A stretch of 64,000 nt of DNA from Escherichia coli 042 (GTDB lineage: Bacteria > Pseudomonadota > Gammaproteobacteria > Enterobacterales > Enterobacteriaceae). The notes beneath the pieces were generated by a model that saw nothing but the letters and a program-made list of their open reading frames with translations, was not told where the DNA came from and did not search any database. The stretch lies in the NCBI RefSeq assembly GCF_000027125.1, contig NC_017627.1. One strand, given 5' to 3'. Position numbers and translations under genes: made by a program. Shown in pieces: positions 2,565-15,280 of the stretch (position 1 is its first letter; every line of letters begins with the position of its first letter).

Positions 2565-5500
2565 TCAGTCTCCGCCCAGGGTTTTCTCTTTCTGCAGGTC
2601 ACGGACCATATCCCGCTCCATCTGCTGCAGACGCTCCTGCAGCAGATTTTCCCGGGCAACCTCCCGGACCGCTTCCCGCTCCCGTTGTGATTCACGCAGC
2701 ACACTCTCCGGCAGTGCGGTTTCCCGTTCAGAAGTGGCAGTCCGGTCACGTTCCTGCCCGGCAATCTCCCTGACAGCCTGCTCTGTTTTGCCATCCGGCA
2801 GGTCAGGTTTGTTCTCTGCCATTTTACGGACAATTTCATCTGCGCGACGTTCCGTTTCACGGCGGATGGCCTCTTCAGCCTGCCGCTGTGCCAGCACTTC
2901 AGCTGTAACCGGTTCACCATTTCCGGCCCCCGGCTGGACGCTGTTATCCGGGATATCCCCCCACACGCGGCCACCGGTGATGGCACCGGGATTCCACGGA
3001 CGACCTTCACCGGCAATTCTCACCACCACACCGCTGTCAGGATTATCACGGGCAATCCGGACACCATCCTGCATATTATCAGCCAGCAGGCTTTCTCCGT
3101 TACGGCTGCCCTGCAGGGCCACGAACTGCGCATCCCCGCTGCCCTTCACCCGTCCTTCACCGCTGAATCCCCGCAGCCCGTTTCCGTCATCCGTGGTCAG
3201 TGGGTTCAGCCAGATACCGGCGGACCTGCCGTTACGGTCAAACGCCGGCAGTGCCACATACGGCTGCGGATATTTACGTCCCGGTGCAATAAACCGTGCA
3301 GGGCTGTCTCCCCCGGCCAGCCCTGCCTGACGGAGAACGGCACGGCCTGCCGCCACGTCCCGCAGTTCCCGTGCCGTACTGAACAGCCGCTCTGCATTCA
3401 TGACCTCCCGGTCCGGTTTCGGTTCAAACACATCGTGGGCTGTTCCTTTCTGTACGGCATTGTTAATGGCATCCGTCCAGCCCTGACGGTTATCGGTGTA
3501 CACCTGCACATGCTGCTTCATACGCGACAGGGCCACGTAGGCTGACTCAAAGCCTGCCATCAGTTTCCGGTTACCTTCCGTGCCTTCAAGCGCGATGGCA
3601 AAGGTTTCACTCGCCCCCTGCGCACCGTGGGCGGTGATGGCATAGGCCAGGTCAATATGTTGCTCTGCCCGCTCCTGTCCGGGGCGAATCACCCGGGTCT
3701 GCTGTCCGTCCGACAGCGTGACACTGTCACCGGAAACCGCTGTCACCGTCCAGACGCTGTTGGCCACATAACCGCGCTCCCGGTCACTCTTCGTGAAGCG
3801 CATCCGGTCGCCGGTTCCCACCCGGATGGTGTCCGGGGTGTACAGTGTGACGCCTTCAGCCACCGCCTCCCGGGGCGAAATCAGCCGCGTGTTACCTTCC
3901 GCATCCTGCAGGGTTATCAGCCCGTCATCCTTACTGACACCGGCAATCCGGTGATACACATTATCCACCAGGGCAAGGGCATCCGGGTTATTCTCCCAGG
4001 TGGAGAGACGACGCAGTTCCCCGTCGCGTATATTCGCTGTATTCAGGACAGGCACCATGACCTGCTCTTTCCCCAGCTCACCGGCCTTTTCCCGTGCATC
4101 ATGAATCATGCTGTTCAGTACGCGCCGGTCCTCATTCAGGTGCGTGACAATCAGCGTCTGCTCCCGTGCTTCCGGTGTCCTGCCGGTATAGTCGCGGACA
4201 ATGGCTTCATACAGTGTCATGGGGACATCCGGGAAAGCCTCGCCTTTCAGCATCGCCTTCTGCTGCGCTTCTGCCAGTTTCGCTTCCTGGCTGTGACTGA
4301 ACTCCGTCACGGAGTGCTCCGGTGCCCATGCGCCCTCCAGACGTGGCACCTGAGACGGTTTCACACTCTCAAGCCCGGACAGTGCCCTTTCCACATCCCG
4401 GTTAATCAGGCTGTATACCGCCTCCCGCAGTTCCGGCGTCTGACGCACAATCTCCTTCATGATGACCACATCGGCAGCACTGCGCGTCTGCTGGAGACGG
4501 AAAGGCTGACCGGGCGCGATGGCCTGCAGCTGGTCCGTGTCACCGCTGGCCACAGCACGACCGCCACCGGCCGCAATCAGGGCGTATGCCCGTGCCATGT
4601 CGGTATTGCCCACCATTGAGCTCTCATCGAGCAGGAACAGCGTGTTGCTGAAATCCGGCGTTTCTCCGCTGCGCTGCTGCAGCTGCGTGTCATGCAGAAA
4701 GGACGCCAGCGTCTGTGCATCCACGCCGGCGCTGCGCATCTCACCGACCGCACGGTGCGTGGGCCCCAGCCCCACAACTCGGGGACGCTCACTCGCCGGC
4801 AGCATGTTCACGGCTGACATCACCGCCCGGAACTGTGTGGTCTTACCCACACCGGCATAACCCTGTACCACCGTGAAACGGTCGGACGTTTCCAGTATCA
4901 TGCGGGTGGCGGCACGCTGTCCTGATGTCAGTTTCTCCATGAGTTCGCCAGGTACTCTCTCCATCAGCGGCGTGACCGCCTCCTTACCTTCGAGAATATG
5001 GCGAAGAATGCTCTTTTCTGCCTCATACGACGCACGGGAAACCAGCAGGCCTGTGCCATAGCCTTTTGCCACATCCACATACAGTAAATCACCGCGTTTT
5101 ATCTGCGCATTGATTTCCCCTCCCAGTTCAGTAAAACCGGTTCCTTCTGCAGCAAACGACTTCGCCTCTGTCAGCAGGTCCACCATGCTGAAGGCCAGGT
5201 TTTTACTTTCCAGCACAGGAAGGGCCAGATGAATGGCCTGGTGTGCCGGCGTGTGCAGCCCGGCTTTCTGCAGACTGATAGCGGTTTCCAGCGATGTCTC
5301 ACCGGCCCGCGCCTTTATCTGCTCAGAAACCACCGTAAAGGAGGGATGGCGGGCAAGTTTTTCCGCAGTACGGGTTTCATCCAGTGAGGAATACAGCCGG
5401 ACATCACGACCGCTGCGGGCCAGACCGTTCAGGGTGGCGTTGTCCATTGCCATCTGTGTGACGGAGGCAAACACCGTCGCACTGTCACTGACGGAATGCC

Positions 5501-7835
5501 CGGGCGTTTCCACCCAGCCGTTCTCCAGCTTCAGTGCCGTGAACGGTGAATCGCTCACAGGCAGGGAGGCCGGTTCAGCCCGCCCCGGCACAACAACCGT
5601 CATCGCATCTTCACTGACGGATGCCACCTGCAGGCGGTCACCGCCGGAGACGCGGAGTCCGGGAATTTTCCCTGTCACCCTCAGTCGCTCGCCGTCTGCC
5701 ACCGGCATTTTTTCCGGCCGGAACAGCGACCAGCTGCTGTCCAGGGAGGAAATACGCACCACCTGCGTTTCGCCCTGCGCATCCCGCAGGGTCAGGCTGT
5801 GACTCTGCGCTGTCACCCGGTCTATCACATAGCGGTCATGACTGCGTGTCTCCGGGTTCCACTGCTCCATCACCATCCCCGGTCGGTACATATCCCGCAG
5901 ATAACGGCTCCGGCTGTCCAGCCAGACCGGTGACAGTGCAGTCATGGTCACCTCAGGGTGTCCGAGCACGCCCTGCGTTTTCAGCTCACTGCGAATGGCC
6001 TGTGTCAGTATGGCCTGTTCCCGTACCCCGCTGACCTGTGCCACGCTCTCTTCTCCGGCTTTCACGCTGGCCGCAAAATCTCCGGCCAGCCGGGCATAGC
6101 GGACATTACGGTCCGGTTCACTGATGATGGTGGCCGGTCGCTGTTCTCCGCCCTGCCAGCGATATGTGTTCACCCCGGCATCCTTCATGGCCATCAGCGC
6201 ACTGCCTGTACCGGTTCGCTGCCCGCTGTCGGTTATCAGGACCTGTACGTTATGACGTGCGGCACCGTCCAGCAGGGTTAACGTCTCTTTCAGGGAGAGT
6301 TTTTCGCCCTGGTCGACGATAACAGTACTGCCCGGCGTGAAGGCCATGCCCTCCTGCAGCTGACGACGTCCGGTTATCAGCTCACCGGACAGCCGTTCAT
6401 CCTGCTTCAGGTTCATCTGCGAGCGACGGTCAGCGGCGATAATCTGCATCTCCCGCCCCTGCTCCCGGGCCATCATGACCAGTTCAGCCACCCGCTCACG
6501 CTGCCCGGCTGCACCGCCCTGCCCGGAAACAATGGCCAGCGACGGACGGTCCTGTGCCAGAACACTGACCGCATCGCTGTAACCAGCCGTCCGGGGGACA
6601 CTTTTCTCCGGATGTACGGTCACCCGGTTCTGTTTCATGATGTCACGACTGAGTGCCCGGACGGACAGCTCATCGAGCACATGAATTCCTGATGTGAACA
6701 GCCCCTTCTCACGGTCGAGGGGGATAAGCTGCTCACGACTGATGGCCTCATCGATACCGGCGCGTGCCCGTTCAATCACACCATTTTCCGGCGGCAGTAT
6801 ACCGACCGTTCTGGCCAGCACGTCCGTGTACGTAAACTGCACTTTTCGTTCACTTAATCCGGCAATGGCCTGTGTCACCGCCTGCTGCACATCCGGCCCC
6901 TCCTGTGAAACAGCCCCGGGCGCCTGCGTGTGGGTCTCCGCACGCTGATCCGCCGCGTCACGATATGCCCGGATGTCGAACCCGGTTTCCTTCAGCGTCT
7001 GCATCCATTCAGCCATTCTGACTTCAGGATCGACGTGCTGTTTGGATTTTCGCGTATCCAGTGCCGCCACATCCCGGGATTTCAGTGAGGCCCCTTCACC
7101 GACGGCCTCCCGGATAGCCTGTGAGCGTCCGGAGAAGGCTTCCACCGGTACGCCCGGCATCTCCCACATACCGTGCTTACCGACCACTTCGGTTTCATAG
7201 CCCAGTGCCTCAACCTGCTCTTTCAGTTTTTCCCGGTAGAGCCTGCCAAAGGCAATCTGATTAGCGTACACATTCTCAATGAACCCCGTTTTCCCCACTT
7301 TGTCACTGCTCAGTGTCTTCCACTCACCGTTATGCTGCGTGACATTAGCCACCACCGCATGCGTGTGTAACTGTGGTTCCTGATCGCGACTGGTGTCGTG
7401 GTTAAACAGTGCCATCACCAGATTACCGGTCAGTACCGTTTCTGACTGTCCGTCCGTCATCACCCGTGTGGAGGCCAGCGCCTCCACCTGACGAACAGCA
7501 AAGTCCACGGCCTGGTTATGTGCATCAATCAGGCGCTTATCGCCACCTAACATGGCCATCATGGAGACACTTTTGGGGGCGGAGAAGGTCAGGTCGTAGC
7601 CGGGACGATGCTTATTACTGCCATCCTGCATGCGGCTTAGATCCGCTCCGTCCGGCAGCCTTCCCTCCAGAAGACGGGTAAAAACATCCTTATCGACACT
7701 GCCCTGCAGTCCCAGCTGTTCAGCCCCCCTGCCGGCCCAGCGTTCTCCCATGCTGCCCAGTACATAGTAATTATCCTTGTCGGTATAATAGTTACCGGCA
7801 CTTCCGGCCGATCTGACCTGCGCGATACTCATCAT
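2565..7835 (-). CDS. traI: TraI relaxase/helicase
   Basis: 1756 aa, same length as F TraI; N-terminal relaxase region, helicase Walker A GYAGVGKT, long C-terminal domain. Confidence 0.97.
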   Translation of the reverse strand: MMSIAQVRSAGSAGNYYTDKDNYYVLGSMGERWAGRGAEQLGLQGSVDKDVFTRLLEGRLPDGADLSRMQDGSNKHRPGYDLTFSAPKSVSMMAMLGGDKRLIDAHNQAVDFAVRQVEALASTRVMTDGQSETVLTGNLVMALFNHDTSRDQEPQLHTHAVVANVTQHNGEWKTLSSDKVGKTGFIENVYANQIAFGRLYREKLKEQVEALGYETEVVGKHGMWEMPGVPVEAFSGRSQAIREAVGEGASLKSRDVAALDTRKSKQHVDPEVRMAEWMQTLKETGFDIRAYRDAADQRAETHTQAPGAVSQEGPDVQQAVTQAIAGLSERKVQFTYTDVLARTVGILPPENGVIERARAGIDEAISREQLIPLDREKGLFTSGIHVLDELSVRALSRDIMKQNRVTVHPEKSVPRTAGYSDAVSVLAQDRPSLAIVSGQGGAAGQRERVAELVMMAREQGREMQIIAADRRSQMNLKQDERLSGELITGRRQLQEGMAFTPGSTVIVDQGEKLSLKETLTLLDGAARHNVQVLITDSGQRTGTGSALMAMKDAGVNTYRWQGGEQRPATIISEPDRNVRYARLAGDFAASVKAGEESVAQVSGVREQAILTQAIRSELKTQGVLGHPEVTMTALSPVWLDSRSRYLRDMYRPGMVMEQWNPETRSHDRYVIDRVTAQSHSLTLRDAQGETQVVRISSLDSSWSLFRPEKMPVADGERLRVTGKIPGLRVSGGDRLQVASVSEDAMTVVVPGRAEPASLPVSDSPFTALKLENGWVETPGHSVSDSATVFASVTQMAMDNATLNGLARSGRDVRLYSSLDETRTAEKLARHPSFTVVSEQIKARAGETSLETAISLQKAGLHTPAHQAIHLALPVLESKNLAFSMVDLLTEAKSFAAEGTGFTELGGEINAQIKRGDLLYVDVAKGYGTGLLVSRASYEAEKSILRHILEGKEAVTPLMERVPGELMEKLTSGQRAATRMILETSDRFTVVQGYAGVGKTTQFRAVMSAVNMLPASERPRVVGLGPTHRAVGEMRSAGVDAQTLASFLHDTQLQQRSGETPDFSNTLFLLDESSMVGNTDMARAYALIAAGGGRAVASGDTDQLQAIAPGQPFRLQQTRSAADVVIMKEIVRQTPELREAVYSLINRDVERALSGLESVKPSQVPRLEGAWAPEHSVTEFSHSQEAKLAEAQQKAMLKGEAFPDVPMTLYEAIVRDYTGRTPEAREQTLIVTHLNEDRRVLNSMIHDAREKAGELGKEQVMVPVLNTANIRDGELRRLSTWENNPDALALVDNVYHRIAGVSKDDGLITLQDAEGNTRLISPREAVAEGVTLYTPDTIRVGTGDRMRFTKSDRERGYVANSVWTVTAVSGDSVTLSDGQQTRVIRPGQERAEQHIDLAYAITAHGAQGASETFAIALEGTEGNRKLMAGFESAYVALSRMKQHVQVYTDNRQGWTDAINNAVQKGTAHDVFEPKPDREVMNAERLFSTARELRDVAAGRAVLRQAGLAGGDSPARFIAPGRKYPQPYVALPAFDRNGRSAGIWLNPLTTDDGNGLRGFSGEGRVKGSGDAQFVALQGSRNGESLLADNMQDGVRIARDNPDSGVVVRIAGEGRPWNPGAITGGRVWGDIPDNSVQPGAGNGEPVTAEVLAQRQAEEAIRRETERRADEIVRKMAENKPDLPDGKTEQAVREIAGQERDRTATSERETALPESVLRESQREREAVREVARENLLQERLQQMERDMVRDLQKEKTLGGD

Positions 7836-10186
7836 CAGAAATCATCTCCCGGCTCAACATCCTCCCCACGCTCCCGGTGCACATTAATGTTCACCTCTTC
7901 ACGACGCTGCATCTGCTGCTGGATGTCCGGATGATTTTCCTGTTGCCATGCCTCATAAGCGGCCATATCCACCACTTCACCGGATTCACTGATCCCGGGT
8001 GGCAGTTGCTGTTCCATCTCTTCTTCCGGTTTCATTTTCAGCTCCTGCTCGATCCCCCCTGCCGGAACACTCACACCTGCATCTGACTTCTTATCATTGA
8101 TGACAGAAGACACTGGCTGTTGTGACTGTTGTGACTGTTGTGGCTGTTGTGGCTGTTGTGGCTGTTGTGGCTGTTGTGGCTGTTGTGGCTGTTGTGGCTG
8201 TTGTGGCTGTTGTGGCTGTTGTGGCTGTTGTGGCTGTTGTGGCTGTTGTGGCTGTTGTGGCTGTTGTGGCTGTTGTGGCTGTTGTGGCTGTTGTGGCTGT
8301 TGTGGCTGTTGTGGCTGTTGTGGCTGTTGTGGCTGTTCAGCCTGAGTTACGTCTTCTCCGGAGGCAACCTCCGGTTCGAAGAGGCTGGCCATCTGGCGAC
8401 CTTCTGCTTCCCTTGCAGCAAGTACGGCACTCAGACGGTTCTCCATTTCCGGGTTGATGTCACGCGGAATAAACTCCGGAGCGACCTTCGGTCGTGTCTG
8501 ATATTTCAGGGAGAGTTTGACTGCCGGATACGGTCCGGGCAGAGTGACATAGCAGGTCAGATCCGGCAGAGACTGAATGTCGGAATAACTGACCAGCGTC
8601 TGACGCTCCATATCCTTACCGGTCGATACCCCGTCACGTACCGGGTCAGCACCGTAAGAATACTGCTCGCTGGCTTTCAGGTGCTCTTTCTCACCAATTT
8701 CACCGGCAGCGAACTCTGCAATCTTATGGCTGGGAGAACGGAAAAAGGCACGGGTGTTCATGACGTCAAACAGCGTGGCCGCCGCTTTCTCACCGTAGAT
8801 ATCTTCCAGCTGGGCATAGGACTGGATACCAAACACATAACAGCCACCGAACTTACGGGCTTCCGGCAGGATCTCCACCAGGTCCGGCAGTTTGTGTAAC
8901 GTGGGTAACTCGTCACAGAAAAACCACACACGACGATTACGGTTTTCTCCCATTGCCAGCAGACCACGAATGGCAATGGACAGCCACATGGAGATCACCG
9001 GCTTCAGGGAGGCATGGGTGTCGGCATTCGACGAGATAAACAGCCAGCCGTTTTTCTGATCTTCCCGGACACCACGCATCCAGTCACGGATGGTAAAAGA
9101 CTCACCGTTATGCTCAATCCCCTGCAGGTAACGGATGGCTTTCACGTAGTTGGTCAGCACAGCACGGATGGAAATCGCCGTTTTCTCAATTTTCTCTTCC
9201 ACCAGGTTGGCTGCCGGTGAATTACGCAGGAAGGTACGCAGTTTTTCAATTTTGATGGAAAGCAGTGTGTCCACCAGTTTGCTGTAGCTGCGGTTGGGGT
9301 CATTACGCATCAGGTACGCCGCTTCCGCAAAAATGGTACGTCCTGAACCCTGCCAGAACGGGTCCTCTTTTGTGCCCATCGGGATCAGCGTGTTCGCGGT
9401 ATTATCAAAATCCGGCTGTGTCAGGCACTCCTTCCACAAATCCCAGGCGGCACAGCGGGCATCCAGCGGATTCAGGATTTTATCGATGGAGGGATCATAG
9501 TAACTTTTAACAAATTCCCCCGAACGGTCATAAATCACCACCATATCTCCACGCTGACGGGCGTAGTTGGCCAGACGACGGATAACTTCCGACTTACCGG
9601 CCCCGACCGTGCCGTGCAGACAGAAGTTCTGGATTTCGGAATCCCGGATAATCGGCAGGTCGCCAATCCGTATATCGGAGTCCTTGCCGTCTTTTTTCAG
9701 CATCCGGGCAACATCTTTCGGGTTTTCCGTCAGCTGACGACCACCTGTAACTTCATTTTCGCTCTGTTGTTTACCCTGACGCCCCAGAATCCAAGAGACA
9801 ACAAAGAAGGTGATCAGGCAAATAACCAGTGCCACGACAGACGCCAGAACGAATGCGGACCATAGCTGCTCACCGCACCAGATCATATATTTATCATGCA
9901 GTACCTGGGCAGCGTTCATCCGGAAGGTTTTGCCGTAATACTGGATCTCATATACTGGCTGGGACTTGATTAAATCCCGCATGCCTTCCAGCGTGGTACA
10001 CCACCAGTAAATACAGCCGTTCACAAACGTCTGCCAGCTTATTTTTACCCATAAAATCAGACCAACGAGTATCCAGAAAAAAATAAACAGGCAGTAAAGC
10101 ATGATATTGGCGATCTGGCTGAACATGCGGATACGCATGGACGCAATCTGACCGCCCTGGGTCATATCCTTTGCGTTAAAACTCAT
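7835..10186 (-). CDS. traD: TraD type IV coupling protein with expanded C-terminal QQP repeat
   Basis: 783 aa, [22 protein letters not shown]..., Walker A GTVGAGKS; stop overlaps traI start (TGATG). Confidence 0.97.
8116..8333. repeat. Tandem 9-bp repeat (CTGTTGTGG/CTGTTGTGA), about 24 copies, encoding (QQP)n in TraD
   Basis: Perfect head-to-tail 9-mer array visible directly in the sequence. Confidence 0.95.
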
Positions 10187-10236
10187 GATGAAACTCCGGG
10201 AAAATCTGGAACAGGGCAGAAAAGGATGATGTGGGG

Positions 10237-10977
10237 TTAATTCACAGAAACAGACCAGGTGTACCCTGTATGCCGGTGGTGATACCCGCCTGCAGTCCTG
10301 CCGGAAGAGACCTTCTCTGTAACAATGTCAGTCAGGCGCAATACTTCAGACCAGTCACTCCCGTGCGGAAACTGGATCTGAATAAAAAGGCGTACCCGTT
10401 CACGGTGATCCAGAACTGTGTCCGGTTCATAAAAACGGCCACTGTCAGGAGAAACACGGGACGTTTTATTGATGAGATCATACTTATCGGCAGGAGACTG
10501 CGATGACAGAGACCAGGTAATATTTTCGCCCTGATGACCATCAATACGACTGCTCCCCGGCGTCCATGCAATTTCCTGCGCACTCGCCACGATGATCTCC
10601 CTGGAGACTTCTGCCAGCTTTCTGGGTGTACCGAATACCGGTGCCAGCACACACAGGGACAACAAATTACAGCTGACCGCTTCCGGTTTAAGCGAATTGC
10701 TCCCGGATTTTTCAGGAAAAGATATTTTTGTCAGTATTTCAGTTAATTCCTTATGCCTGAGAGAATTAATAAAGTACATGATAAGCATCATGAGAAACAA
10801 TATAACAATAAGCCCTCCGATAACCACTAAAAGGTTAGTATCAATATTATTGCTGTACAGATAGTCTTTAGTGGTCACTGTATTATCCTGTATCACCGGG
10901 GGGTATTCAGTTACAGGCTTCTCAGTAAATTGATTATTCTCACCAACATATTCAGCGATATTGTCTGATGTCATAAT
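10237..10977 (-). CDS. Hypothetical single-pass membrane protein inserted between traT and traD (not a canonical F tra gene)
   Basis: ORF 10237-11040; likely start ATG at 10977 with GGAG about 9 nt upstream; one TM helix [25 protein letters not shown]; AT-rich 5-prime half. Confidence 0.5.
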
Positions 10978-11176
10978 GACTTTCTCCGGAAGATCCCGAC
11001 TTCGCCGGCAACACTTCACGGTCGCACAAAGAATTTGCACAACCGCTCAGTGTTTTCATATTTATTTCGGAAACGCCGGGAGGTGACAAAATTTATTTTG
11101 TTACATCCCGGGGTTGGACAACGAGCAACGCGAGGCGTCAGCAAGGAGGCCGGTCAGATCAGCCTCCTGACGAGGT

Positions 11177-11908
11177 TCAGAGAATATTTGCGATTGATTT
11201 GGCCAGCTGGTCTTCGAGAACAGGCTTCGCCTCTTCAAATTTCAGGTTAACCTTGTTCGCATTTGAGACCACACGGGTCTGGTATTTATGCTGGTTACCC
11301 GTTTCAGTACTGGTCTGAATTTTCGCACCGGATGTGCCCTGACGCAGGGCGGCAACATTATCCGTTGTCACCGTTGCCTTAGTACGCTCTGCAATCTGTA
11401 CATCCGTGATCATGGTATAGTTCACATCTTCCACCATCGCATCTGCAGCCATACCCACCAGACCGGCAGCAAGGCCTACACCGAGTGTGGCACCGGCAGA
11501 ATTTGAGTTATAGCCGGTAATACCGGCACCTAACGCTGCACCAACAGCTGCGCCTTCATAACCACGGTTCAGCCATCCCTGAGACTCCCGCAGATCCATC
11601 TTATCAGCCTTCAGCACATTCGCCTGAATCCAGTAGTAGGCTTTATCCGGAGAAGTCACCACCTGATATCCTTTTGCTTTCACAGCATCAGCAATTTTGC
11701 CCTGCAGCCCACTCATGTCTTTATCAGACGTGTTTTTGATCTGCAGAAATACCGTGCGTTCGCTGTCGGGTTTAAGCCAGATGGTCTCACTCATCTGAGT
11801 CTTCACCTCAAGGTTACGCTTCTTGATTGCTGTGCTCATCGCACCACACCCTGAAAGGGCCAGAGTGGAACTGACCAGTGCAACCATCATCAATTTTTTT
11901 GTTTTCAT
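11177..11908 (-). CDS. traT: TraT surface exclusion / serum resistance lipoprotein
   Basis: 243 aa from [21 protein letters not shown] (lipobox), near-identical to F TraT from memory. Confidence 0.95.
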
Positions 11909-11939: not shown

Positions 11940-12443
11940 TTATCGCCTGTCATCATAGTCCTGCCAACAAGTCCCAAAAGTATTTCCTGCTGAATCAAAT
12001 CCTCCATGCATAGCTAATCCTGTTGCCGGATTAGTACGATAAAAATCCACATAATCAAAATTCACATCATCAAAATCCAGATGCAAATCTTCATTAGTTT
12101 GTTCATTTACCTGAGATTGCATCCATTCTCTTACACTTACACAACCACTAATTCGCCTTAATTCGTATAGTGTACCAATGATAAAAACCATCAGGCTTAA
12201 TAACGGAGAGAGTAAGGAAGATAATGGCATCAGTATATACCAAACGCCTTTACTGAATTTAAACTCATCCGACACATGCCGTTTTTTTCGTATTTGAGAA
12301 AACAACCATATAAACAATCCCTGCCATAGTACAATAAAGCACAGGATAAAAATTGTTTCGGCACTCCCCCAATCAGCCAGATAACAGGCAATGAACTGTA
12401 TCACCGTCACCAGAGCAATATGAGCTAAATTTTTCATTATCAT
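11940..12443 (-). CDS. traS: TraS-like entry exclusion inner membrane protein
   Basis: 167 aa hydrophobic protein in the traG-traS-traT position; assigned by synteny. Confidence 0.6.
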
Positions 12444-12457
12444 CTCCCCATACGATA

Positions 12458-15280
12458 TTATTGCTTGTGCTTATCCTGATACTCCTTTGCTCTTTTCATC
12501 AGTTCCTGTGGACTGTCAGCACCAGGCATTCTTTCCTGACCCGATTTTTCTTCATTATATTTATTATTCTGAGATAATGCCTCTGTTTTATGGTGATTTT
12601 GTAGTTCAGAATACTGTCTTCCTACAATATTTTCTTCGCCACGTATGCTGCTCTGAGTATCTCCGATATTGCCACGATATTCTGTGACCATATTATCAAC
12701 CTGATGTTTTACATCATTACGGATATTACTGTCCTGCGTTCTTTGCTCAATAATGGCCTGATGTCCCTGATGGTCAGCAATAATATTCTGGCTGCCACCG
12801 CCCGAAGGTACGCTCTCCATTCCTTTACCGATGTCCCCACGGGATTCACGCCAGGCATTATCAACACCAGGCTGTACCTGTTCCTGCACAAAAGACCACG
12901 CCATAGCCCGACGGCGTTCTGCAATCTCCGGCGAACTGGTATTTGTCAGAATAGCTTCTGCATCCTGCGGTGCGCGTTTCATCACATACTGTGCAAACTG
13001 TTGCGACAGGTCTTCACTCATCTGCCCGCTCATGCTTTCAGTACGGGAGGCCATTTCCGCATATTCATGGCTGCGGGTCATATTCGTCGTGTACTGGTCG
13101 TAACTCTGTTTCGCTGAGTTCAGGGCTGCAGACAACTGATCCACACGGGAATCGGCATTATTGTCCGTATGGCTGCCGGATTCACTGACCTTGCGACTGG
13201 TAAAGTAATCGCTGGCCTCTTTAAAGTCTTGTGTAGCCCTGGCATCGATATCATGGCGAGCATCATGGCTGGCCCGTGAACCACTGCTGGCCTGATGCGC
13301 ATCCTCATCACTCCAGTCAATACTTGCCCGACCACCACCTCTAACACCTGCGCCACCACCAACACCAAGAATTTTAGGTTTAACCCCCCATTCAGCATGA
13401 ACATCGCCATACATCCCCGCAGAACCTCTCGTACTTCTTGATGCCAGTTCTCTTGTTGCCTGCTCATTACTGATATTATGCGCCTTCGCATAGCTTTCCA
13501 CTGCACTGCGCATACGGCTGGCCATCATGGAGTCCTGTGCACTCATGGTGCTGTCAGCGCCACCGGTGACAGAATCACTGCTCCCCCGGTTAGAACCAAA
13601 CTGACTGAGCGAGTTCCAGGCACTGGCAATACTGCTGCTGAAACCATGCAGGGCACTTTCTGCTCTGTTCGACGCCTCCCGGGCCATTTCCTGTTGTGCC
13701 GCTGCAATCTGACGCGTTGCATTGATACCAACCGGTAACCGGGACATCGCTCCGCTTGCATCCATCACCATATTACCGTCACGGGTCTGTGTGGCAGTTG
13801 CGCCACTGCCGGTCTGGTACATCATCTGACCAAACGACGTGGTGCTGTTGGTGCTCCAGCTGAAGCCGTTCACGTTTTCCGTCTGCATGTTGCCGTAGGA
13901 GTAATTACCGTCAACCACACTGCCTGCTGCACTGGCCGTCGGACTGATAGAGGAAGAGGCGAAGTGGCTGTACACGCTGGAAAAACCTGCGCCAAGGCCT
14001 TTTACCATCATCCATGACAACGGGGGGATCATGGCTGAAAGATACCCGGCAGTAGAGGCCAGGTCAGAGTATTTCAGCTGTATCTGAGAGAGTTCAGACA
14101 GCACGACCGGCGCACCATTCATCTTCGCATAGAATGTCATGGCACTGTTCAGAATGGCATACAACAACGGCCAGGTCTGCAGCCACATCAGGGCAAACAC
14201 ATAGCCTTTCAGGACGGACAGTGTCAGTTTGTTGAAGACAGCTGCCAGTACCAGAAGCGGGAAAATACCAATGGCAATTCCCGTCAGGATAGTCTGTACC
14301 ATTGGCAGGTTTCGCATTGTCACATGACCGATAGAGACATGCGCCAGACGTTGCTTCTCCATCGATGACGTGGTGGCCAGATTCACCAGGCTGGCGGTGT
14401 CACCATTACGGGCGGCATTACTGGTGATACCCTCTTTCAGGGCATTCATGGTGACGTTCTGGCGCATAATCTGGCTGGCAGACTGACTGGAGCCGTAGAA
14501 ATAACTGTAACTGTCACTGACCAGTTGTCTGAATAACAGGTCCGGGTCCGGTCTGCCGCCAAATATCTGCTGCACATAATAATGCCAGGTCTTGCCTCCC
14601 GTCTTTGTATCGAGATTCAGCCTGTCTTTCAGCGTGACCGACGCATCCTTACAGGTTATGAAATTATTATTGTTGTCATAAACGCCCCGTAGCGGGCTGG
14701 GTCGGGAAAAAATCAGCGTGTAGGGGTCAGCGGAGGCCATCAGATCTTCCAGCGTGTATTTATGATTCAGGTAAATATCACCCAGCACGCAGTTCTGGAC
14801 GTAGTCCTGGAACAGATTGATGATTTCCGGATTCCGGGACAGGAAATCGGTGCTTTTCACAATCAGATTCGCCCCGAACAGCATGCCTGTCTTGCTGTAG
14901 GTGACGCTGTCCGGTTGGGTGAATATCATCTCGTAGCTGACCACCATCGCATGCCCGATACGTGTCGTCAGTGAAAGTGGCATCGCCAGACCGACCGGCA
15001 CATTATCCACCCGATGGACTTTGACCAGGTCACTGTTATCAATAATCTGCACCGATGTGCGGACATTAACCAGCAGGCTGATAAGCACAAACACCGCCAC
15101 CCAGCCCAGTAAATCCATCACGTTGTGCCGCTGTACCCACATAAAAGCCACAGCAACAACAGACAGGGTGAGCGCAATTTTTTCAATGGAATCCCAGGTC
15201 CGGGTACTCATAAATGCTGCAATGGCATTCAGGTTGTTACGCAACCACTCACCACCGGCAATCACATAAACTTCATTCAC
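12458..15280 (-). CDS. traG: TraG mating pair stabilisation / entry exclusion protein
   Basis: 940 aa, N-terminal polytopic region and large periplasmic C-terminal domain; F TraG length. Confidence 0.95.
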   Translation of the reverse strand: MNEVYVIAGGEWLRNNLNAIAAFMSTRTWDSIEKIALTLSVVAVAFMWVQRHNVMDLLGWVAVFVLISLLVNVRTSVQIIDNSDLVKVHRVDNVPVGLAMPLSLTTRIGHAMVVSYEMIFTQPDSVTYSKTGMLFGANLIVKSTDFLSRNPEIINLFQDYVQNCVLGDIYLNHKYTLEDLMASADPYTLIFSRPSPLRGVYDNNNNFITCKDASVTLKDRLNLDTKTGGKTWHYYVQQIFGGRPDPDLLFRQLVSDSYSYFYGSSQSASQIMRQNVTMNALKEGITSNAARNGDTASLVNLATTSSMEKQRLAHVSIGHVTMRNLPMVQTILTGIAIGIFPLLVLAAVFNKLTLSVLKGYVFALMWLQTWPLLYAILNSAMTFYAKMNGAPVVLSELSQIQLKYSDLASTAGYLSAMIPPLSWMMVKGLGAGFSSVYSHFASSSISPTASAAGSVVDGNYSYGNMQTENVNGFSWSTNSTTSFGQMMYQTGSGATATQTRDGNMVMDASGAMSRLPVGINATRQIAAAQQEMAREASNRAESALHGFSSSIASAWNSLSQFGSNRGSSDSVTGGADSTMSAQDSMMASRMRSAVESYAKAHNISNEQATRELASRSTRGSAGMYGDVHAEWGVKPKILGVGGGAGVRGGGRASIDWSDEDAHQASSGSRASHDARHDIDARATQDFKEASDYFTSRKVSESGSHTDNNADSRVDQLSAALNSAKQSYDQYTTNMTRSHEYAEMASRTESMSGQMSEDLSQQFAQYVMKRAPQDAEAILTNTSSPEIAERRRAMAWSFVQEQVQPGVDNAWRESRGDIGKGMESVPSGGGSQNIIADHQGHQAIIEQRTQDSNIRNDVKHQVDNMVTEYRGNIGDTQSSIRGEENIVGRQYSELQNHHKTEALSQNNKYNEEKSGQERMPGADSPQELMKRAKEYQDKHKQ

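Follow-up and report, generated by a model that had tools for sequence, protein, structure and literature searches.

The locus between traT and traD

The minus strand of the window, by which we mean the whole stretch of 64,000 nt that was analysed, encodes the distal portion of an F-like tra operon, as seen in the ORF listing. Along that strand lie traG (12458-15280), traS (11940-12443), traT (11177-11908), traD (7835-10186) and traI (2565-7835). Between the gene for the surface exclusion lipoprotein TraT, which is the upstream neighbour, and that for the type IV coupling protein TraD, which is the downstream neighbour, there is a yhfA-type coding sequence of 738 nt on the minus strand (10237-10974; ATG at 10974, stop codon at 10237-10239). 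It encodes 245 amino acids and its stop codon is 50 nt from the traD ATG. A Shine-Dalgarno sequence, GGAG, is read on the minus strand at 10984-10987, 9 nt 5' of the ATG. The same 738 nt CDS is annotated by RefSeq in the near-identical plasmid pF8704-2_1 (NZ_CP050997), where the product is a 'hypothetical protein', WP_000199910.1. The GC content is 0.31-0.41 across 10700-10999, the 5' half of the gene, compared with 0.47-0.56 in the 3' half.

An earlier note on this DNA had placed an ORF between traT and traD and had given it a Shine-Dalgarno sequence of its own, an AT-rich 5' half and one transmembrane helix, all of which hold. The product was put at 247 residues and should be 245 from the ATG that the Shine-Dalgarno sequence serves, as in RefSeq. 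The interval that was assigned, 10237-11040, does contain the gene on the minus strand, but its outer end is the upstream GTG of a mechanical 267-residue ORF (GTG start, 10237-11040). The 66 nt GTG extension of that ORF (10975-11040, minus strand) is most likely to be an untranslated leader with no coding role, since 10993-11040 is retained in F, which has no gene there, and since the RefSeq CDS begins at the ATG.

Alignment shows that the leader 3' of traT (10993-11176, minus strand) is common to the F and pSLT types. RNA folding places a 9 bp GC-rich hairpin with no U-tract in it, at about 11144-11168 on the minus strand; its folding energy is ordinary (z = -1.3). A promoter and terminator scan of the minus strand of the traT-yhfA leader scored neither a sigma-70-like promoter nor a canonical terminator, and an Rfam scan of the region gave no match. 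A GC hairpin that lacks a U-tract, together with no scored minus-strand promoter, fits read-through transcription. A profile search of all six-frame ORFs of the window gave no yhfA paralogue and no homology to any other window ORF, TraS included.

Identity with yhfA of R100 and the junction in F

The ORF is the R100-type yhfA, the same gene, already annotated and named. It is 97.4% identical in nucleotide sequence to yhfA of R100 (NC_002134, 75462-76199; WP_000199905.1) over all 738 nt, and R100 yhfA also encodes 245 residues and also stands in the arrangement traT-yhfA-traD. The two proteins differ by a few substitutions; the window protein has G115 where most variants have cysteine. The AFDB/UniProt entries named YhfA are 96-97% identical and the protein cluster representatives 97-99% identical. 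Ochi et al. call the gene YhfA, 'found in R100 and not in F' (PMC2762410). As a conserved hypothetical already on record it is no discovery, and it is ordinary for plasmids of the R100 type.

Searches of the literature by gene name, accessions, junction wording and TraDIS found no functional study of yhfA; the mentions of R100 YhfA that were found are descriptive (PMC2762410 and one bioRxiv mention). The matches for 'YhfA protein' concern the chromosomal OsmC-family YhfA of E. coli, which has the name alone in common with the plasmid protein. The two are unrelated, as the plasmid protein has no OsmC, Pfam or NCBIfam match.

The traT-traD spacer of F is 252 bp in length and has no ORF inside. 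According to blastn and a global alignment, the homology of F with the window extends from traT as far as 19 nt before the yhfA ATG and returns 12 nt before the traD ATG. Between these points the window has a segment of 794 nt (10199-10992, minus strand), consisting of the Shine-Dalgarno sequence, the gene and 38 nt, in place of a 56 nt AT-rich spacer that is unique to F. The identity between F and the window is 93% over a 307 nt alignment that includes the 3' end of traT; for a pSLT-like plasmid it is 86%. The pSLT-like plasmids have the same left breakpoint as F and a different spacer. The gene is absent from F and from pSLT-type operons, and no remnants of yhfA were found in the spacers of F, pSLT-like plasmids and Edwardsiella.

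An uncharacterised single-pass membrane protein gene beside the traS/traT module and missing from F is what the earlier note described and what is present. The note had also taken traT to be followed directly by traD in both F and R100, which is correct for F but not for R100, and had called the gene non-canonical, a term that does not suit R100 yhfA, present in roughly half of the plasmids with this junction.

Coding status and selection

Selection was assessed by Nei-Gojobori dN/dS on eight variants, taken from independent plasmids and aligned by codon; as a control, the alignment was displaced by one or two bases. In frame, the C-terminal domain has a dN/dS of 0.15-0.26 and the N-terminal part one of 0.25-0.6, against 1.1-2.2 in both shifted frames. 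yhfA is a real gene, and its protein sequence is maintained by purifying selection. The neighbouring genes are more constrained, with dN/dS of 0.03-0.14 for traT and 0.05-0.09 for traD. An alternative-frame ORF of 106 residues (10332-10652) was rejected as coding, with omega greater than 1 in the shifted frames.

Between the window and P0103 dS is 1.43 for yhfA and 0.27 for traD; between the window and P0005 it is 0.20 for yhfA and 1.0 for traD. Within the same plasmid pairs the dS of yhfA disagrees with that of traT and traD, so that the region is a mosaic produced by recombination, and the discordant genealogies of yhfA and traD give no sign of co-evolution with TraD.

Architecture of the protein

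YhfA consists of three parts. An acidic N-terminal tail, residues 1-47 (10834-10974, minus strand), has by charge count two Lys/Arg and eight Asp/Glu and is predicted to be periplasmic. A single transmembrane helix follows at approximately residues 48-70 (10765-10833, minus strand), with a mean Kyte-Doolittle value of 3.2 over residues 48-66. A conserved C-terminal domain, defined from alignments A1-A3 as residues 98-245 (10240-10683, minus strand) and predicted to be cytoplasmic, opens with the motif [12 protein letters not shown]. At about 148 residues this domain is shorter than the 170 or so given in the earlier note, which was right in recognising no motif in it.

Each of the 24 intact members in the alignment has one helix, an N-terminal tail of 36-52 residues with 1-4 Lys/Arg against 5-9 Asp/Glu, and 1-5 Lys/Arg in the 15 residues after the helix. 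By the positive-inside rule the topology is predicted to be N-out/C-in, with the tail in the periplasm and the C-terminal domain in the cytoplasm.

The two ends of the protein evolve differently. The N-terminal tail is hypervariable between variants, and in the E. coli clade the N-terminus falls into three unrelated types. Within each of the two clades considered here, that of E. coli and that of Klebsiella described below, the N-terminal 100 or so residues form a mosaic of several barely alignable types, and the C-terminal domain stays conserved. In the alignment of both clades (A3) the invariant residues are P97, L105, C108, V109, P139, G140, R143, D145, W154, G179, P184, Q201, L214, D216, G229, G230, G237 and Y238.

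The AlphaFold2 models reach a pLDDT of 42 when the whole protein is modelled and 48.8 when the C-terminal domain is taken alone, both too low to interpret; the helix is the only region with pLDDT above 70. The low-pLDDT model, with the order beta-alpha ... beta-alpha-beta, suggests an alpha/beta fold for the domain of about 140 residues. The motif [14 protein letters not shown] at the start of the C-terminal domain is probably a buried beta-strand. This hydrophobic segment was considered as a second transmembrane segment or a lipobox and rejected; it is too short, is not N-terminal and is non-hydrophobic in Klebsiella (LSICVEGPAS). A conserved Cys/His metal site was likewise rejected, C108 alone being invariant across the clades.

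Pfam, NCBIfam, PADLOC and PHROGs gave no match for the window protein and divergent homologues from both clades, and the defence profiles of PADLOC-DB v2 assigned 0 families to the window protein and four divergent homologues. The PDB, queried with the YhfA sequence and with profiles A1 and A3, returned only chance matches of transmembrane type (E > 0.3). Foldseek, with the poor, low-pLDDT model as query, returned the protein's own AFDB entries and weak matches to uncharacterised proteins, A0A8T8CB46, A0A7X2MI95 and A0A8A4K8L9 among them, to which we give no weight.

Distribution

About 1,800 PLSDB plasmid records carry yhfA, compared with about 1,880 that have the short spacer of the F type, and in 1,797 of the 1,885 PLSDB matches at least 80% of the gene is covered. 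Among F-like plasmids from E. coli, Shigella and Salmonella that have a traT-traD junction of this type, about one in two carries the gene. It is present in 1,209 of 5,426 complete E. coli genomes (~22%), where 1,398 of its 1,402 places are plasmid-borne. Every variant examined (the window, R100 and six further variants) has the order traT-X-traD, and yhfA was seen in no other slot. An exhaustive HMMER search of 1.84 billion representative proteins returned the family alone, as fragments and variants, with no relative outside F-like plasmids; its most divergent member in that scan, P0103, is 61% identical in the C-terminal domain. No copy was found in 50,697 phage records.

The clusters of intact proteins are large, with 1,341 members in P0001 and 2,474 in P0002. 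Forms of 213 residues arise by frameshifts at differing positions into one alternative frame (ORF 10332-10652 of the window). They are nearly all singletons, mostly from read-assembly sources, and we infer that most of them are sequencing errors. Truncation of the 5' end by insertion sequences is common (P0007, 230 members; P0016, 921 members); in the cluster of 230 sequences an IS66-family element lies in the 5' part of yhfA. The yhfA of the published pEntH10407 carries an ISEc8-like insertion (PMC2762410).

A homologue in Klebsiella IncFIIK plasmids

In the Klebsiella IncFIIK plasmid pKP3 the traT-traD slot is occupied by a hypothetical protein of 229 residues, WP_161283537.1. Alignment of this protein with the YhfA family by hhalign gave a probability of 91% and an E value of 1e-6, with 26% identity over 135 columns; pairwise BLASTP with YhfA gave an E value of 1e-10 and 22% identity. 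A tblastn search with the K. michiganensis member retrieved 3,416 PLSDB records, of which about 1,900 are from Klebsiella and about 1,500 are of the E. coli type, the latter at E values of 1e-5 to 1e-3. A profile search with the combined alignment returned the two known clades alone among the best 120 of 196 hits. On these alignments a diverged homologue fills the same slot in Klebsiella IncFIIK plasmids and the family spans about 3,400 PLSDB plasmids.

Like YhfA, the pKP3-type protein has an acidic tail, one helix, a cluster of Lys/Arg and a C-terminal domain, here of about 135 residues. Unlike YhfA, it is richer in cysteine and has neither the His-rich C-terminus nor the 14-residue motif, of which it shares only L105, C108, V109 and, nearly, P112. 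Across the two lineages the identity is 85% for TraT and 71.5% for the N-terminal 200 residues of TraD, whereas it is only 22% for the protein in the yhfA slot.

The remote homologue in the same slot of the Klebsiella IncFIIK tra operons points to long residence, and yhfA looks like a long-resident and fast-evolving accessory gene of the tra operon rather than recent cargo. This weakens the idea in the earlier note that the gene was inserted as cargo. The gap in the F and pSLT lineages would most simply be loss of yhfA.

Possible functions of YhfA

We consider that YhfA may be a non-essential accessory of the donor inner membrane that acts near TraD in a modulatory capacity, a proposal that we favour only tentatively and judge to fall a little short of an even chance. 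F transfers efficiently without yhfA, so YhfA cannot be a core component; a core component of the F-type T4SS or Dtr would be expected in all self-transmissible F-like plasmids, F included, and yhfA is missing from F and from the pSLT type. According to this proposal yhfA, lying beyond the traT hairpin, would share a low-abundance distal transcript with traD and traI. The protein would be made alongside the DNA-transfer genes in transfer-competent donors and not constitutively, as traS and traT are. Its cytoplasmic domain would then act at the docking site of TraD and the relaxosome on the membrane, and would tune transfer or make transfer conditional.

Some support for this comes from published RNA-seq of pBIC1a, for which the RPKM values are 231 for traS, 282 for traT, 8 for the hypothetical ORF between traT and traD, 7 for traD and 10 for traI (PMC6286996). 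In this single data set, obtained with a Klebsiella IncFIIK plasmid in E. coli TOP10 and with the ORF matched to yhfA by slot alone, the slot ORF behaves like the repressed DNA-transfer genes and unlike the constitutive traS and traT, which are about 30-fold higher. Other observations sit less easily with a TraD accessory. The divergence to 22% identity and the hypervariable N-terminal tail would equally fit a conflict or specificity factor. There is also no structural match to tie YhfA to TraD, the two genealogies are discordant and 5' truncations by insertion sequences are common.

YhfA may alternatively be a factor in genetic conflict, either as a fertility inhibitor aimed at the coupling protein of co-resident plasmids, as a block to pilus phages that exploit TraD, or in defence or anti-defence. 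The gene is dispensable for F-type transfer, it is polymorphic for presence and absence at roughly 50:50, it diverges far faster than its neighbours and, in both clades, its N-terminal region is a hypervariable mosaic, all of which would favour a conflict factor. By analogy, one might also draw a parallel with pifC of F and fipA of pKM101, non-essential fertility-inhibition genes, located within or close to tra regions, whose products act on coupling proteins. We nevertheless think a conflict factor unlikely. Neither clade has a PADLOC or PHROG match, the phage records hold no copy and the representative proteins no relative outside F-like plasmids. Mobile defence cargo usually changes its context, whereas yhfA is seen only between traT and traD, and this position, at the end of the plasmid that is transferred last, is a poor place for early anti-defence.

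A third component of exclusion, working in plasmid-carrying recipients with or beside TraS and TraT to reduce redundant entry, seems to us improbable. The gene adjoins traS and traT, its product is predicted to be an inner-membrane protein as TraS is, and the hypervariable and predicted periplasmic tail resembles the allele-specific variability of TraS. The slot ORF of pBIC1a, again matched by slot alone, is nevertheless expressed at the level of traD and not at that of the exclusion genes. In L008 traT is replaced by an unrelated lipoprotein of 262 residues and the traS slot by a reverse-strand ORF, and yhfA is kept at 83% identity. The same YhfA C-terminal domain also accompanies several traS alleles (161, 167 and 169 residues). 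Its retention in L008 and its occurrence with several traS alleles indicate that YhfA is not the specific partner of one TraT or TraS allele. Moreover, F achieves full exclusion through traS and traT and, as the junction shows, does so without yhfA. The suggestion in the earlier note of an exclusion, defence or anti-defence role is hence unsupported, given the empty PADLOC, PHROG and phage searches, the persistence of the gene without traT and traS and the traD-level expression in pBIC1a.

That yhfA lacks a function, being either a remnant in decay or an artefact of annotation held by linkage to traD, is scarcely credible: many single-member clusters are frameshifted 213-residue forms, IS-truncated forms are common and homologues outside F-like plasmids are lacking, but this reading is largely refuted by frame-specific purifying selection (omega of about 0.2 against more than 1), intact forms dominate both the protein clusters and the PLSDB records, the protein is conserved down to 22-26% identity between two lineages with invariant Pro, Gly and Trp positions, and the frameshifted clusters, nearly all read-assembly singletons, would fit sequencing errors.

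A broader proposal, which we regard as possible but doubtful, is that the YhfA family is an unrecognised and fast-evolving part of IncF conjugation that either gates or tunes TraD-dependent DNA export or serves as a conflict factor, mediated by the coupling protein, against rival plasmids or pilus phages. Either role, as a modulator of TraD or as a conflict factor, would explain the selected retention of the gene in half of the F-like plasmids with this junction type and its absence from F.

What makes yhfA matter is its place, as a gene under selection, within the best-studied conjugation operon. It is carried by about 22% of complete E. coli genomes and occurs, with the Klebsiella homologue, on about 3,400 clinically relevant IncF plasmids (R100-like and Klebsiella IncFIIK among them). 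If YhfA does affect transfer efficiency, plasmid competition or phage susceptibility, this would bear on the spread of resistance plasmids. To what was known of the gene we add a frame-specific test of selection, the connection of the E. coli clade with that of Klebsiella, a consistent predicted N-out/C-in topology and evidence that sets yhfA apart from the exclusion module.

Comparison with known systems

YhfA differs from the TraT lipoproteins (PF05818) in having no Pfam match, no N-terminal signal and no lipobox; its N-terminus is acidic. TraS of F-like plasmids is, like YhfA, a small, fast-evolving and allele-rich inner-membrane protein encoded in the same neighbourhood. No sequence similarity between YhfA and TraS was detected, however, and yhfA varies independently of the traS allele. 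The high constitutive expression of exclusion genes is not seen for the pBIC1a slot ORF in the literature data, where the match to yhfA is by slot alone.

A likeness may also be drawn with the small non-essential genes trbA, artA, trbB, trbJ, trbF and trbH of the F tra operon. These are embedded in the operon, dispensable for F transfer and variably present in F-like plasmids, and their role is mostly obscure. YhfA resembles them in being embedded, dispensable and variably present, and differs from them in its larger size and its distinct, membrane-anchored domain architecture.

The junction downstream of traT

Downstream of traT lies a conserved stretch of about 185 nt (window 10993-11176, minus strand) that is common to F, pSLT-like and R100-type plasmids. 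Its identity to the window is 93% in F, over a 307-nt alignment that includes the 3' end of traT, and 86% in the pSLT-like plasmid. Despite this conservation, the sequence that lies beyond it is wholly different among the three types. A small CCGGC-GAA-GxCGG hairpin closes the stretch, at the breakpoint. The conserved segment may serve the distal genes as a regulatory leader.

Replacement is also seen further upstream. In some related plasmids (L006, L008 and L009) the traS slot is occupied by a reverse-strand ORF of 103-109 aa, and in L008, which carries yhfA, a predicted lipoprotein of 262 aa with an LLGGCGS lipobox, unrelated to TraT and with no match in Pfam, stands in place of traT. The loci listed for the reverse-strand ORF or the traT replacement are L008 1572-1901 and 2037-2825, L006 4661-4984 and L009 1659-1970. 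Such replacements may constitute an alternative exclusion module. The plasmid of Edwardsiella anguillarum (L016) has an F-like operon that lacks both traT and yhfA, with a single 165-aa hypothetical protein, presumably a TraS analogue, encoded between traG and traD (L016 2917-3414).

Integrity and reading frame of yhfA

Insertion sequences have repeatedly hit the AT-rich 5' part of yhfA (L012 295-2910, L013 1-324 and L011), and an ISEc8-like insertion in this part of the gene is present in pEntH10407 (PMC2762410). IS66-family elements cut the product to 219 aa in a cluster with 230 members. A 180-aa form of YhfA, with 921 members, sits at a contig end; on the L011 contig, the truncated gene is preceded by 158 nt.

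A second frame of yhfA holds a 106-aa ORF (window 10332-10652, minus strand), and dozens of database proteins of '213 aa' are frameshifts out of the yhfA frame into that of this ORF. We rejected the ORF as coding, since dN/dS exceeds 1 in the shifted frames of yhfA.

Foldseek searches with the low-confidence model of the YhfA C-domain (residues 98-245) returned uncharacterized proteins as the best non-self matches. These include A0A8T8CB46 of Pseudomonas syringae (probability 0.98), with further matches in Pantoea (A0A7X2MI95, listed as Enterobacter agglomerans, and A0A8A4K8L9), Enterobacter soli and Kosakonia. Remote analogues carried by other mobile elements are one possible reading of these matches; noise from a poor model is another.

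TraD and the traD-traI junction

A vapBC pair, encoding a PIN toxin and its antitoxin on the opposite strand, lies between traD and traI in F (L002 7967-8592), the pSLT-like plasmid (L015 5672-6297), the Edwardsiella plasmid (L016 5783-6408) and some yhfA-carrying plasmids; the pair is also listed at L009 6029-6654. At the traD-traI junction of the window vapBC is not present, and the start of traI abuts the traD stop at 7835. Near the C-terminus of TraD in the window is a long (QQP)n tract encoded by a tandem repeat of a 9-bp unit (window 8114-8337, minus strand; 24.9 copies, 99% matches). Because of this tract the protein reaches 783 aa, whereas the R100 CDS of 2,217 nt encodes 738 aa and the F CDS of 2,154 nt encodes 717 aa.
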